A model generated the notes under the pieces. It had not been told where the DNA came from and ran no database searches. It saw nothing but the letters and a program-made list of their open reading frames with translations. From contig CAMMFK010000002.1 in the NCBI GenBank assembly GCA_946496115.1, forward strand, positions 1-41,441: 41,441 nt of DNA. The letters are read 5' to 3'. The DNA is from an uncultured Clostridium sp. Its GTDB lineage: Bacteria; Bacillota; Clostridia; TANB77; CAG-508. Positions 5,667 to 37,736 of this stretch are shown one piece after another; the first letter of the stretch is position 1, and every line of letters starts with the position of its first letter. The position numbers and the translations under genes were made by a program.

Positions 5667-6446
5667 ATGGGCATTTCAACGGTTGCAATGTTAGGTTTAT
5701 TTTTTGGAACAATTGGAACTACAATAGGTGGTTTGATAGGAATTTTCTCTAAAAGAAATTCAAATAAATTTTTAAGTTTTGTGTTAGCTTTTGCATCAGG
5801 CCTAATGCTCGCAGTTATTTGTTTTGATTTAATTCCAGAAGCAATTGGAATTTCTTCAATTTACACTACTATTTCAGGTATTATACTTGGAATAATTGTA
5901 ATGATTCTATGTGATAATTTGGTAAAAAACACTTTTAATAAAAAAGATTATACTAGTAATACAAAAGTAAAAGGAAATAATAAAATTTCTGCTAGAAATA
6001 AAGGATTATTAAAAACAGGAATAATTGTAAGTATTGGGCTAGCACTTCATAACATTCCAGAAGGTTTAGCAATTGGTTCAGGCTTTGATTCATCTACTTC
6101 TTTAGGCTTATCACTTGCAATTGCAATATGTTTGCACGATGTTCCGGAAGGAATAAGCATGGCTGTTCCTATGAAAAATGGAGGAATGAGTCCATTTAAA
6201 GTAATGCTGTATGTGATTCTATCTGGGATAGCAACAGGTTTAGGAGCACTAATTGGAGCATTAATAGGAAACATATCTGAACAAATTATTGCAGTATGTT
6301 TAAGTTTTGCTGCTGGTGCAATGCTTTACATTGTAACAGGTGAGCTTATACCAGAAGCAAATGAATTATATAAGGGGAGAATCACATCTTTGGGTAATAT
6401 GATGGGATTTATAATTGGATTATTTGCGATGCTGATTGAATTCTAA
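5667..6446 (+). CDS. zupT: ZIP family (ZupT-like) divalent metal transporter
   Basis: Multi-TM protein with the paired HNIPEGLAIG and HDVPEGISMA motifs characteristic of ZIP/ZupT. Confidence 0.85.
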   Translation: MGISTVAMLGLFFGTIGTTIGGLIGIFSKRNSNKFLSFVLAFASGLMLAVICFDLIPEAIGISSIYTTISGIILGIIVMILCDNLVKNTFNKKDYTSNTKVKGNNKISARNKGLLKTGIIVSIGLALHNIPEGLAIGSGFDSSTSLGLSLAIAICLHDVPEGISMAVPMKNGGMSPFKVMLYVILSGIATGLGALIGALIGNISEQIIAVCLSFAAGAMLYIVTGELIPEANELYKGRITSLGNMMGFIIGLFAMLIEF

Positions 6447-6474
6447 AAATTAACAAAAATAAAACGAAAAAACA

Positions 6475-6503
6475 TTGACAATAATAACGAAATATAGTAT
6501 ATT
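6475..6503 (+). promoter_or_regulatory. Sigma-A type promoter for the small-peptide transcript
   Basis: TTGACA (6475-6480), 17-nt spacer, TATATT (6498-6503). Confidence 0.6.
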
Positions 6504-6586
6504 TTGAAAATAGAGAATGAGAGAAAGCAGTGTGTGTGCTACCACTTTACATACACAGTTTTTACTGTGAGAATGGAGGTGGTGCT

Positions 6587-6697
6587 ATGTACATAATATT
6601 AATAAACTTACTTAGTCTATTTTTCTTCGGATTAATAGCTGTATCTATCATAGCAATTGCCTTAATTATAACTTTGGTTATTATTTTGAGCAAATAA
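6587..6697 (+). CDS. Unannotated 36-aa hydrophobic peptide (candidate type I toxin or small membrane protein)
   Basis: ATG at 6587 with GGAGG (6575-6579) 7 nt upstream. Translation is MYIILINLLSLFFFGLIAVSIIAIALIITLVIILSK, with TAA at 6695-6697. It is below the ORF-track length cutoff and forms one predicted TM helix. Confidence 0.55.
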   Translation: MYIILINLLSLFFFGLIAVSIIAIALIITLVIILSK

Positions 6698-6782
6698 AAA
6701 TGCACCACATTACGCTTCGCCAAGCTATGTGGTGTAACTATATCTTATAGGTAGCACACATTTCTGTGGCATCTCATTTTCT
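6692..6782 (-). ncRNA. Candidate cis-antisense sRNA (antitoxin-like), convergent with the peptide gene
   Basis: Bounded by a consensus minus-strand promoter (6789-6817) and a hairpin (caccacat 6703-6710 / atgtggtg 6727-6734). On the minus strand the hairpin is followed by catttttattt. It overlaps the last two codons and the 3' UTR of the peptide ORF. Confidence 0.5.
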
Positions 6783-6788
6783 ATTCCT

Positions 6789-6817
6789 ATTATATAATAA
6801 GTTTTTTAAAATGTCAA
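6789..6817 (-). promoter_or_regulatory. Perfect consensus sigma-A promoter on the minus strand
   Basis: Read on the minus strand: TTGACA (6817-6812), 17-nt spacer (6811-6795), TATAAT (6794-6789). No protein gene lies downstream of it. Confidence 0.65.
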
Positions 6818-6891
6818 TTTTTTCGTCAATAAAATTTTTATATTTTATAATTAACGAGACATTTTTATATTGATACAAATTTCAAAATTCC

Positions 6892-6920
6892 TTGACTATA
6901 AAAACAAAATATAGTAAAAT
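6892..6920 (+). promoter_or_regulatory. Sigma-A type promoter upstream of pcrA
   Basis: TTGACT (6892-6897), 17-nt spacer, TAAAAT (6915-6920). Confidence 0.5.
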
Positions 6921-7031
6921 CTTTAAGTACGAACAAAAGTTTTACAATAATAAGTTTGCATAAAGCAAAATCAAGAAGGTTTATAGGTTAATCCATAAAA
7001 ATCTAAATATATACAAGGAATAATATTATCA

Positions 7032-9377
7032 ATGGACGAACTATTAAATGAATTAAATCCAAGACAAAAAGAAGCGGTAGAGTCTACAGAAGGACCATGC
7101 TTAGTTATAGCAGGTGCCGGTTCTGGAAAAACAAAAGTGCTTACATATAAAATCAGTTATTTAATGCAAGCAAAGGGTGTAAAACCATGGAATATATTAG
7201 CTATTACATTTACCAATAAAGCAGCAAATGAAATGAAAGAAAGAGTAGAGCGATTAGCAAGTGACGCCATAAATGATATATGGCTTGGAACTTTTCACTC
7301 TATTTGTGTGCGAATACTTAGAAAATTTATAGATAGAATAGGTTTTGATTCTTCATTTGCAATATTTGACTCAACAGACCAAAGAACATTAGTTAAGAAT
7401 TGTATGAAAGAGCTTAACATTGACCCCAAATTATTTACGGACAGATCTATTTTATCTGAAATAAGTAATGCAAAAAATGAAATGTTAACTCCTGAAAAAT
7501 ATGAGGAAAGAGCAAACGGAGATTACAGAAAAGAAATAACTTCAAAAGTTTATTACTTATACCAAAAAAAGCTTAGGGAAAATAATGCTATAGACTTTGA
7601 CGATATTATAAATTACACTATAAATATTTTAACAGATAATCCTGATGTACTAGATTATTATTCTAGTAAATTTAAGTACATATTAGTTGATGAGTATCAA
7701 GATACAAATAAATCTCAATTTATGTTAGTATCTCTTTTGGCTTCTAAGTATGGAAATATTACTGTTGTTGGAGATAGTGACCAATCAATTTATCGTTTTA
7801 GAGGAGCAGATATAACTAATATACTTAATTTCGAAAAAGATTTTCCGGGTGCAAAAATAGTTAAGCTAGAGCAAAATTATAGATGCACTGGAAATATTTT
7901 AAAAGCTGCAAATGCTGTTATTAAGCATAATGAAAACAAATATGAAAAAGTACTTTGGACAGAAAATGATGAAGGCAAGCTTCCTTTTGTATATTGTGGT
8001 GAAGATGAATATGACGAAGGTAGTTTTATAGTTCAAGAAATAAATCATTTAAGAAGAGAAGAATATTACAAATATTCAGATTTTGTGGTTTTATATAGAA
8101 TGAACTCTCAATCAAGAGCAATTGAAGATGTACTTAGAAGAGAAGACATACCATACAAAATTGTTGGAGGTTTAAAATTCTATGAAAGAAAAGAAATTAA
8201 AGATATTATTGCATATTTAAGATTAATTGCAAATCCATCAGATAATCTTTCATTAGAAAGAATAATTAATGAACCTAAAAGGGGTGTAGGAAAAACTAGC
8301 TTAGAAAACATTGAAAAGATTTCGGCAGAAAATGGAATTTCAATGTATCAGGTTATTAAAGAAGCGGATAAATTTTTGCCTAGAATTTATCAAAATACTA
8401 GAGAATTTATAAATGTAATCGAAGAGTTACGTGCAACAGATGTGCCTGTATCAGAACTTATTAAACAAACATTAAATAAAACAGGTTATACTCAAGCTTT
8501 AAAAAATGAAAATACAGTTGAAGCAGAAAGTAGAATTGAAAACTTAGAGGAATTTTTAACTGTTGCTATGGAATTTGAAAAAGAGTCAGCAGATAATAAT
8601 TTAAACGAATTCCTTGAAAGCATTTCGTTATCTAGTGATACAGACAGTTTGGAAGAATCAGATGATATGGTAACATTAATGACTCTTCATAGTGCTAAAG
8701 GTTTGGAATATCCAGTAGTATTCTTGGTTGGTATGGAAGATGGAGTATTTCCAGGACACAAATCAATGGACAACCCAGAAGACATAGAAGAAGAAAGAAG
8801 GCTATTTTATGTAGGTATAACTAGAGCTCAGCATTATTTATATTTAACATTTGCAAGAAAAAGAACAATATTTGGCTCAACGAGTTATAATCCACCATCA
8901 AGATTTTTAAAAGAGATTCCAGCAGATTTACTTGATGGATATGAAGATGCCTTTGCTGAAAAAGAGGAAGAAGACGAATTTGAGGACTCTAAGTATTCAT
9001 GGAGCTATGGCAATAGAGCAAATGGCTATGCGGATAGGTTCGCTTCAAAAGTAGTTTCATATAAGGTGTCAGCAGATAGTTTGAATAATGGAATAAGTTT
9101 TGGAGATAAGTCTCAAACTAATGATGATGCACAGCCAAGCTTCCAATTTAGAACAGCAGAAAGTTTCTTAAATAATTTAAATAAAAAGAAAACATCAAGT
9201 CCAGTTGACTTATCTCAATATAAAGTTGGTCAAAAAGTATTTCACAAAAGATTTGGAGAAGGTACTATTACTAACTTAGAAAGAGAAGAAGATGATATTA
9301 AAGTAGATATAGAGTTTGATAAATTTGGTCATAAAAGATTAATGGCTAAGTTTGCTGGTCTAGAAATTTTAAATTAA
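7032..9377 (+). CDS. pcrA: ATP-dependent DNA helicase PcrA (UvrD/Rep superfamily 1)
   Basis: Walker A AGAGSGKT, DEYQDT, and VGDSDQSIYRFRGA motifs. The conserved PcrA C-terminal tail is present (VGQKVFHKRFGEGTI...FGHKRLMAKFAGLEIL). Confidence 0.95.
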   Translation: MDELLNELNPRQKEAVESTEGPCLVIAGAGSGKTKVLTYKISYLMQAKGVKPWNILAITFTNKAANEMKERVERLASDAINDIWLGTFHSICVRILRKFIDRIGFDSSFAIFDSTDQRTLVKNCMKELNIDPKLFTDRSILSEISNAKNEMLTPEKYEERANGDYRKEITSKVYYLYQKKLRENNAIDFDDIINYTINILTDNPDVLDYYSSKFKYILVDEYQDTNKSQFMLVSLLASKYGNITVVGDSDQSIYRFRGADITNILNFEKDFPGAKIVKLEQNYRCTGNILKAANAVIKHNENKYEKVLWTENDEGKLPFVYCGEDEYDEGSFIVQEINHLRREEYYKYSDFVVLYRMNSQSRAIEDVLRREDIPYKIVGGLKFYERKEIKDIIAYLRLIANPSDNLSLERIINEPKRGVGKTSLENIEKISAENGISMYQVIKEADKFLPRIYQNTREFINVIEELRATDVPVSELIKQTLNKTGYTQALKNENTVEAESRIENLEEFLTVAMEFEKESADNNLNEFLESISLSSDTDSLEESDDMVTLMTLHSAKGLEYPVVFLVGMEDGVFPGHKSMDNPEDIEEERRLFYVGITRAQHYLYLTFARKRTIFGSTSYNPPSRFLKEIPADLLDGYEDAFAEKEEEDEFEDSKYSWSYGNRANGYADRFASKVVSYKVSADSLNNGISFGDKSQTNDDAQPSFQFRTAESFLNNLNKKKTSSPVDLSQYKVGQKVFHKRFGEGTITNLEREEDDIKVDIEFDKFGHKRLMAKFAGLEILN

Positions 9378-9447
9378 AGATTAAAGATAAAAAATAAAAA
9401 ATAATAAATAAACAATAAAAATATGAACAAAATATACAAATAAAAAA

Positions 9448-9592
9448 GGTCACAATATACATTCTCTCCCATTTCACTGCGCGGGTCGCTTCGCTCCAGC
9501 TTGCCCGCTACACTCTGCAGTCCTACTTAGTTATAATCGAAAATGCTCGCGCTGCAACCGTTCGCTGAAATGTCGAGAAGTATATTGTGACC
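9448..9592 (+). repeat. GC-rich long-hairpin intergenic element, copy A (full length)
   Basis: The outer arm ggtcacaatatacattctc pairs with gagaagtatattgtgacc. It is flanked by an A-run and a T-run. The 91-nt core (9483-9573) matches copy B at 88 of 91 positions. It lies between the convergent pcrA and mecA genes. Confidence 0.85.
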
Positions 9593-9627
9593 TTTTTATA
9601 TTATTTTATTAATTTTTAAAATTTAAT

Positions 9628-12570: not shown

Positions 12571-12720
12571 AAGCTCAAATATACATTCTTCCACATTTCT
12601 ACTCTTCGGGTCGCTTCGCTCCAGCTTGCCCGCTACACTCTGCAGTCCTACTTAGTTAAAATTTAAAATGCTCGCGCTGCAACCGTTCGCTGAAATGTTC
12701 CAGAACATATATTTGAGCTT
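12571..12720 (+). repeat. GC-rich long-hairpin intergenic element, copy B (full length, intercistronic mreB-mreC)
   Basis: The outer arm aagctcaaatata pairs with catatatttgagctt. The core 12608-12698 is near-identical to copy A, with identical blocks of 51 nt and 34 nt. Confidence 0.85.
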
Positions 12721-37707: not shown

Positions 37708-37736
37708 TTGACATTTTAGATAAAAAATGTTATAAT
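37708..37736 (+). promoter_or_regulatory. Consensus extended -10 sigma-A promoter of the G5-domain gene
   Basis: TTGACA (37708-37713), 17-nt spacer, TGtTATAAT (37728-37736). Confidence 0.65.

Follow-up and report, generated by a model that had tools for sequence, protein, structure and literature searches.

What occupies the 585-bp spacer between zupT (5667-6446) and pcrA (7032-9377) in an uncultured Clostridium sp. (TANB77; CAG-508)? The spacer lies in a 41,441-nt stretch of contig CAMMFK010000002.1 (assembly GCA_946496115.1), hereafter the window, in which zupT encodes a ZIP-family zinc transporter (Pfam Zip, E = 5e-35) and the pcrA product carries UvrD/PcrA domains. A preliminary description of this DNA had proposed a type I toxin-antitoxin (TA)-like module of the 3'-overlapping kind, whose mRNA would be closed by pairing of its two ends and whose ribosome-binding site (RBS) could be sequestered. 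Our analysis supported this proposal, each element being conserved across about 30 independent copies. We consider it likely that the locus is a chromosomal type I TA-like cassette of a previously undescribed family, the term toxin-antitoxin being used here on the grounds of architecture.

Anatomy of the Module

The window contains one copy of the module. On the plus strand, a promoter with 11 of the 12 consensus positions (TTGACA-17-TATATT, 6475-6503) is predicted to start transcription near A6510 and thus to produce an mRNA with a 77-nt leader. The Shine-Dalgarno (SD) sequence GGAGG (6575-6579) is separated by 7 nt from the ATG at 6587, which opens a 36-codon open reading frame (ORF, 6587-6697) encoding the putative toxin, a single-helix hydrophobic peptide (MYIILINLLSLFFFGLIAVSIIAIALIITLVIILSK). 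On the opposite strand, a perfect promoter (TTGACA-17-TATAAT, 6789-6817, 12/12) would drive a predicted antisense small RNA of about 90 nt (6692-6782), the putative antitoxin, which contains no ORF and ends in a hairpin followed by a U-tract. This hairpin (6702-6735), with the stem GCACCACAT (6702-6710) / ATGTGGTGT (6727-6735), is shared by both strands. All these elements had been listed in the preliminary description, and we found each of them where it had been placed.

Two further parts of the mRNA are defined by their complementarity. The 5' strand of the closure (6510-6543, ATAGAGAATGAGA ... GCAG TGTGTGTGCTACC) forms the beginning of the leader, and its 3' strand (6750-6784, GGTAGCACACATTTCTGT ... 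TCTCATTTTCTAT) lies in the 3' untranslated region (UTR), where it is the complement of the small RNA 5' domain. The remaining 5' UTR (6542-6586) includes, upstream of the SD, a leader anti-SD (ACCACTTT, 6542-6549) and a small hairpin (CACAGT/ACTGTG). Within the ORF, a block at 6649-6663 (CATAGCA-a-TTGCCTT) can pair with the SD and start region (GAGGTGG-TGCTATG, 6576-6589). The predicted small RNA is perfectly complementary to the mRNA 3' UTR and stop codon, the latter being overlapped by its 3' end, while its first 33 nt nearly repeat the leader of the mRNA.

Copies of the Module in Unrelated Genomic Contexts

Locus DNA was fetched for homologs, and metagenomes were also scanned with the invariant SD string CTGTGAGAATGGAGGTGGTGCTATG. 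We thus obtained a total of 34 loci, corresponding to 27 distinct module sequences, in at least eight mutually unrelated chromosomal settings. These include, besides zupT|pcrA, the neighborhoods of NUDIX/radical-SAM genes and gdpP, of an ABC ATPase gene, of SufU/cysteine desulfurase genes and of a DedA gene; other copies are located downstream of spo0A and adjoin spoIIID, a large serine recombinase gene or other genes. In an alignment of 24 sequences, conservation extended from the plus-strand -10 element and start to the -35 element of the minus-strand promoter (TGTCAA), the sequence upstream of the plus promoter being not conserved and the flanks being unrelated. The 5' UTR segment 6542-6586 was nearly invariant in these 24 copies. 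Hence the two promoters, the ORF with its frame, the terminator and the closure travel together in unrelated flanking DNA; the preliminary description had suggested to look for such joint conservation of the ORF, antisense promoter and terminator. The copies fall into a subfamily A and a divergent subfamily B (the second copy of locus L084 and loci L116, L118, and L119) in which the layout is kept but the helix sequences are different.

The strength of the conservation is illustrated by a related strain (L083) in which zupT is only about 90% identical at the DNA level, yet only one base, a synonymous one, differs in the 185 nt between the predicted transcription start and the ORF end. Among 31 pcrA loci from the closest species representatives (PcrA identity 71-77%), where the zupT-pcrA spacers measured 73-470 bp, neither blastn nor single-sequence nhmmer detected the module, and no similar small hydrophobic ORF was present. 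A profile later found one divergent copy (L011:1660-2110), about 1 kb upstream of pcrA in a rabbit-gut species representative. This copy is separated from pcrA by a low-molecular-weight phosphatase-like gene; its leader is longer, its ORF starts with GTG and encodes the peptide VENALLLITYLLFYGMIGMTLINLALLIIICFLLHRQ, and its antisense promoter is TTGACA-17-TATAAT. We also considered a regulator or leader peptide specific to zupT or pcrA, which is unlikely since the homologs adjoin unrelated genes.

The preliminary description had raised the question of multiple paralogous copies. A profile scan of all fetched DNA indeed revealed second copies on the same contig at five loci (L084, L094, L103, L106, and L112). 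In L084, a 187-kb contig, two divergent paralogs stand in tandem (L084:3290-3660 and L084:3938-4298); they are alike in the promoter, the first 35 nt or so of the leader and the 3' end, and unlike in the middle. The sister contigs L085-L088 carry NUDIX and radical-SAM genes where L084 has the extra copy. Some copies are decayed: L103:3108-3468 and L104:1614-1974 (minus strand) no longer have the toxin promoter or the greater part of the leader, and retain the ORF, the hairpin and a perfect antisense promoter. A fragment at L112:1975-2065 matches only the small-RNA part of the profile.

We found no match to the module in phage, plasmid and IMG/VR collections. In two loci, given here in coordinates that apply after orienting them with the module on the plus strand, the module located downstream of spo0A is followed by a gene for a 526-aa large serine recombinase instead of spoIIID (L102:3680-5257 and L107:1201-2778), which suggests that the module can sit at the edge of an integrated element.

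The Peptide and Its Family

The peptide of the window has 36 aa, a mean Kyte-Doolittle hydropathy of 2.55, its own RBS and the C-terminus SK. Neither this peptide nor 15 members of its family matched any Pfam or NCBIfam family at E<=10, and in particular the peptide did not match PF01848 (Hok/Gef). Used alone as a query against 1.84 billion representative proteins, it gave no match at E<=0.001, because it is too short and hydrophobic for a database of this size. When the query was extended by six upstream residues, a word-indexed search recovered 19 homologs, and a divergent paralog used as query added 6 others. A profile built from both groups then retrieved 626 peptide clusters at E<=1. The best 120 of these 626 were all below 3e-10, and none of these 120 carried an informative name or a Pfam domain. 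Three peptide motifs searched in the literature were contained in no searchable paper.

The lengths are narrowly distributed, with 36-37 aa in subfamily A (16 distinct peptides) and 39-40 aa in subfamily B. Proline is absent from all of the approximately 60 family peptides inspected, which consequently lack a PXXXG motif. Most database entries start at spurious upstream codons inside the leader, and the "N-termini" of the homologs alternate between two frames of one leader sequence (LPLYIHS versus ATTLHTQF). This change of frame indicates that the leader is non-coding and that the ATG following GGAGG is the real start. The longer ORF of 55 aa beginning at an upstream GTG was rejected for the same reason.

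The ORF was intact in all copies, with indels only in multiples of 3. The ratio of nonsynonymous to synonymous divergence (pN/pS) was 0.56 for codons 2-21 and 0.23 for codons 22-36. Judging from these patterns, the ORF is coding and under purifying selection. The preliminary description had considered that homologous loci might keep the hairpins and lose the reading frame; instead, the frame was always open and pN/pS was below 1. In addition, synonymous divergence was three times lower in the 3' half of the ORF (pS 0.113) than in the 5' half (0.327), which suggests that the RNA itself is under additional constraint.

Closure of the mRNA and Burial of the Ribosome-Binding Site

Both predicted RNAs, whose folding the preliminary description had proposed to check, folded better than shuffled controls. 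The plus RNA (6510-6790) folded at -92.6 kcal/mol (z = -8.3), with its ends mutually paired and the SD in a stem, and the minus RNA (6782-6692) at -25.8 kcal/mol (z = -3.2). The complementarity previously noticed between the leader and the 3' region was borne out: positions 6510-6522 pair with 6772-6784 and positions 6527-6543 with 6750-6767, the duplex reaching -43.9 kcal/mol compared to -13.7 +/- 3.5 kcal/mol for shuffled sequences.

RNAalifold was then applied to 19 copies, each taken from its predicted transcription start up to the position opposite the small RNA start. The consensus structure comprised the closure (columns 6-18 with 286-298 and 23-40 with 264-281), a small leader hairpin, a helix joining the SD and start region to the ORF, and the terminator hairpin. 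Standard pairs were present in 98.7% of 1346 cells, versus 30-49% when the 3' partners were slid by 1-3 columns. Compensatory changes were observed in the closure at columns 10/294 (GC in 15 sequences, AU in 2, GU in 2) and 36/268 (CG in 15, UA in 3, UG in 1). About ten positions varied through G.U only and three showed A.C. Altogether, some 49 cells are G.U on the plus strand and would be A.C on the minus strand. This pattern indicates that selection acts on the helix in the plus RNA, from which it follows that transcription of the mRNA must continue past the shared hairpin as far as about 6784 or beyond.

Subfamily B provided a second view of the same helices. Its closure, GUGGUUUGCC/GGCAAACCAC, replaces GUGCUACC/GGUAGCAC, and in the start region CGUAUG/CAUUACG replaces GCUAUG/CAUAGC. 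For the comparison between subfamilies, in which MAFFT did not align the subfamily B terminator and 3' region correctly, we relied on per-sequence folds and on the energies of cognate and non-cognate duplexes. In minimum free energy (MFE) folds, 24-32 closure base pairs were formed in 15/15 representatives and the SD was paired in all of them. The 5'/3' duplexes ranged from -32 to -44 kcal/mol for cognate pairs and from -15 to -30 kcal/mol across subfamilies, against -12 to -14 kcal/mol (standard deviation 3) for shuffled sequences.

The preliminary description had also suggested that the RBS is sequestrable, from the complementarity of GTGGTGC (6579-6585) to GCACCAC (6702-6708) and ACCAC (6542-6546). 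These complementarities are present, but the main conserved partner turned out to be another one, the ORF block 6649-6663. Its 14 pairs with the SD and start region (6576-6589) were formed in 100% of cells in the 19 sequences. The only variable base of the block, 6656, is a first codon position (I/V/F) and also an unpaired bulge; the pairing thus explains why this part of the ORF is nearly frozen at the nucleotide level. In the MFE fold of the window copy, ACCACUUU pairs with the SD, and when the 3' partner is removed, UGUGUGCUACCACUUU pairs with the SD and the start codon.

Promoters and Shared Hairpin

The minus-strand promoter is the more constant of the two. It was a perfect TTGACA-17-TATAAT (12/12) in 20 of the 27 copies and matched at least 11/12 in all of them, with a 17-nt spacer whose sequence is not conserved, and it stood at a fixed distance from the terminator in the 27 copies. 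No ORF of at least 25 aa was present behind it within the small RNA. The plus promoter occupied the same position in the relatives and was weaker and more variable (8-11/12). A strong antisense promoter opposite a weak sense promoter is usual in type I TA loci. Promoter-like hexamers are common in the window because its G+C content is about 28%, and ten sites of at least 11/12 were found versus 4.7 +/- 2.3 expected; perfect 12/12 sigma-70-type sites, however, numbered 2 versus 0.14 expected in Markov-1 random sequences. The second perfect TTGACA-17-TATAAT of the window is located at 37708-37736 on the plus strand.

The region of the plus promoter (6467-6512) is 74% identical over 46 nt to positions 6884-6929, 417 bp away, which carry a promoter-like TTGACT-17-TAAAAT about 100 nt upstream of pcrA. 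This likeness could be due to duplication of the pcrA promoter upon arrival of the module or to chance in AT-rich DNA.

The preliminary description had noted a T-run behind the shared hairpin in the minus orientation only. In agreement with this, the stem is followed by cattttta on the minus strand and by taactatat on the plus strand, and the 9 nt past the stem contained on average 6.8 U on the minus strand versus 4.4 on the plus strand. With this asymmetry, the hairpin would terminate the small RNA well but the mRNA poorly; what has to be added is that the predicted mRNA must read through it. The stem was invariant in subfamily A and was replaced by wholly different complementary stems in subfamily B. 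Searches of Rfam at gathering and permissive thresholds gave no meaningful match to either strand.

The preliminary description had further suspected that part of the locus derives from a GC-rich repeat family of the window, since the hairpin loop CGCTTCGCCAAGCT resembles CGCTTCGCTCCAGCT of this repeat. The similarity is limited to a 9-nt identical run (gcttcgc and flanking bases). The loop had no second match at up to 3 mismatches, and it varied in the relatives (for example TTATGCTTGGCAGAGCT) in which the stem was kept, so that the derivation is unsupported. The repeat itself is 92 nt long and is present in two copies in the window (9482-9573 and 12607-12698, 97% identity), neither of them at the module locus; it had no credible match in Rfam. 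Its first copy lies just past pcrA within a long AT-rich inverted repeat, aaaaaaggtcacaatatac (9442-9460) / gtatattgtgaccttttt (9580-9597), and looks as if it had been inserted in the loop of a terminator-like hairpin. Elsewhere in the window, positions 850-2620 have a G+C content of 15-22% and contain imperfect repeats that overlap one another, their units being of the AAATAAAA/AATTAAATAAAA type and spaced by 13 nt or more, possibly a low-complexity coding region rich in Asn, Lys, and Ile.

Discussion

The sequences described here look like a large family, present in uncultured gut Clostridia, that resembles a new type I TA family of the 3'-overlap kind with a closed mRNA. From this organization we infer the production of both RNAs, the toxicity of the peptide and the fate of the RNAs once paired. 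In the model that we propose, a weak sigma-A-type promoter would produce an mRNA starting at about 6510 and reading through 6702-6735 to at least about 6784. The first 35 nt or so of the full-length mRNA would be paired with the last 35 nt or so, and the SD and AUG would be buried against the ORF block 6649-6663 or the leader ACCAC, the closed mRNA being stable and translationally silent. Either the closure helix or a collision with the antisense promoter in its occupied state could determine the 3' end of this mRNA. The consensus minus promoter would produce the RNA of about 90 nt, from 6782 to about 6692, ending at the shared hairpin. Because its 5' domain copies the leader, this small RNA would compete with the leader for the 3' strand of the closure. 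Binding between the two RNAs would probably begin at the complementary terminator loops, then open the closure, displace the leader and form a duplex of about 90 bp. By analogy with RatA/txpA and SR4/bsrG, the duplex may be cut by RNase III and the mRNA destabilized, while the freed leader could refold onto the SD and AUG. Translation could be activated by processing at the 5' or 3' end, or by loss of the small RNA.

This scheme includes a more specific and much more tentative idea, namely that the antitoxin is a molecular mimic of the mRNA 5' end. The leader and the small RNA share two blocks and may compete for one docking site in the 3' UTR, which we regard as possible but somewhat doubtful. 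The mRNA would then switch between a self-closed state, stable and silent, and an antitoxin-bound state in which the 5' end is released and is either exposed to RNases or refolded onto the RBS.

Several points weigh against a type I TA-like cassette. The peptide does not have the charged C-terminal tail typical of the characterized Gram-positive type I toxins and has no homology to any known toxin family, so that its toxicity is argued by analogy. One locus (L105) has an intact ORF without a recognizable minus -35 element. Beyond 6784, we found no canonical terminator-like site at which the plus mRNA could end. Within subfamily A there is little covariation, with only two pairs showing double changes, because the family is very conserved. 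Finally, transcription of either strand is predicted from sequence, the host being uncultured.

The alternative that survives best, although we consider it unlikely, is a small membrane protein without toxic activity, which might for instance modulate a membrane complex and whose expression would be tuned by a cis-antisense RNA and by the structure of its mRNA. The constraints on coding and on RNA are equally compatible with such a protein, and the missing charged tail, the missing match to toxin families and the missing association with phages or plasmids would all fit it. However, no partner gene is conserved beside the module across its eight or more unrelated contexts, and two or three paralogs can share a contig. 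The decayed copies L103 and L104 have lost the promoter and leader of the peptide and kept the antisense promoter, a consensus antisense promoter faces a weak sense promoter, and the RBS is buried in multiple layers. Scatter, paralogs, mode of decay, promoter asymmetry and a buried RBS typify type I TA loci, not small proteins with a housekeeping role.

It is very improbable that the locus is a mobile or selfish repeat with terminal inverted repeats, resembling a miniature inverted-repeat transposable element, in which the ORF and promoters would be incidental. The transcribed unit is indeed bounded by inverted repeats (ATAGGAAATGAGA ... TCTCATTTCCTAT) and is found at many different intergenic sites, sometimes in tandem. 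Nevertheless, the ORF is under purifying selection and never disrupted, conservation does not stop at the inverted repeats but includes, on either side, promoter hexamers at a fixed spacing, and variation in the repeats obeys the pairing rules of RNA on one strand only, with G.U and not A.C. The copies are also diverged and number one or two per contig, and no transposase or target-site duplication came to our notice. Lastly, a degenerate copy of the GC-rich repeat (9482-9573 and 12607-12698), as the preliminary description had allowed, or a chance assembly of promoter-like hexamers in AT-rich DNA can practically be dismissed despite the resemblance of the loop CGCTTCGCCAAGCT to CGCTTCGCTCCAGCT and the many promoter-like matches in the region (16 versus 9.7 expected), since this loop has no second match within 3 mismatches and varies while stem and module are conserved in genomes where the repeat was not seen, perfect promoters are rare in the 41 kb (2 versus 0.14 expected), and the whole unit recurs on about 30 other contigs.

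Comparison With Known Type I Systems

The type I TA-like cassette can be compared first with txpA/RatA and bsrG/SR4 of Bacillus subtilis. In each of them the genes converge, the peptide is small and hydrophobic, the antisense RNA is directed against the 3' end or 3' UTR of the mRNA, and the mRNA is folded so that its SD is partly hidden. RatA and SR4 bring about decay that depends on RNase III, and SR4 in addition makes the helix at the SD tighter. In contrast to these systems, with which it shares no sequence similarity, the module encodes a peptide without a charged tail and was not found in prophages. In the module, the predicted antisense RNA is targeted to one strand of the closure and its 5' domain copies the leader, an arrangement that to our knowledge has not been described for txpA/RatA or bsrG/SR4.

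In hok/sok (Escherichia coli R1) and aapA1/IsoA1 (Helicobacter pylori), the full-length mRNA is closed by a 5'-3' interaction and translationally inert, which is matched by the conserved closure and the buried SD and AUG of the module. In these two systems, the antisense RNA targets the 5' region and 3' trimming activates the mRNA, whereas the antisense gene of the module is located at the 3' end and aimed at the 3' strand of the closure. Unlike hok/sok, the module has no mok-like overlapping frame and no Hok homology.

The par system of pAD1 (Fst; RNA I/RNA II), of the Fst/Ldr family, shares with the module convergent promoters and a terminator hairpin common to both RNAs. In par, the complementary terminator loops can start the interaction, a helix hides the 5' end of RNA I and a stem hides the SD (PMC7472228). 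The module has the equivalent of both the 5'-end-hiding helix and the SD-hiding stem, and the peptides are close in length (33 aa for the par toxin, 36 aa here). The par repeats are direct, which makes RNA II complementary to RNA I at its 5' leader and start site (PMC7472228). Those of the module are inverted; as a consequence, the small RNA is leader-like in sequence and its predicted partner is the 3' UTR. Moreover, an Fst-like PXXXG motif is absent from the module family, and the module mRNA must read through the shared hairpin. The likeness to Fst/par is thus a resemblance of design and not homology.

The type I modules of Clostridioides difficile (CD2517.1/RCd8 and others) come from the same bacterial class as our module and have no sequence similarity to it. 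Their peptides of 34-59 aa form a transmembrane helix and are controlled by antisense RNA antitoxins; they have charged C-termini and sit in prophages or beside CRISPR arrays (PMC6563280). The module family, in contrast, has peptides ending in SK and occupies spacers between core genes of uncultured gut Clostridia. A charged C-terminal tail is typical of the characterized Gram-positive type I toxins, reviewed together with the known type I TA families, including txpA/RatA and bsrG/SR4 (PMC6563280). In its design, the module joins the 3' overlap of txpA/RatA and bsrG/SR4 to a closure of the kind seen in hok and aapA1 and to a counterpart of the "upstream helix" of par RNA I, and it is a member of none of these families.

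Implications

As far as we know, type I TA loci are almost never annotated. The module flags short ORFs and small-RNA genes that gene callers start at the wrong codon or miss, and with the family come several hundred unnamed peptide clusters found in gut metagenomes of humans and animals. Clostridial type I TA systems are known experimentally only from C. difficile (PMC6563280). The compact RNA architecture of the module is directly testable by mutation and compensation. We know of no type I system for which a regulatory logic based on leader mimicry has been described. If true, this mechanism would represent a third wiring of a convergent toxin/antisense pair, beside par and RatA/SR4; it would mirror the par/Fst design, its repeats being inverted where those of par are direct, and would exist in uncultured gut Clostridia of hundreds of lineages.

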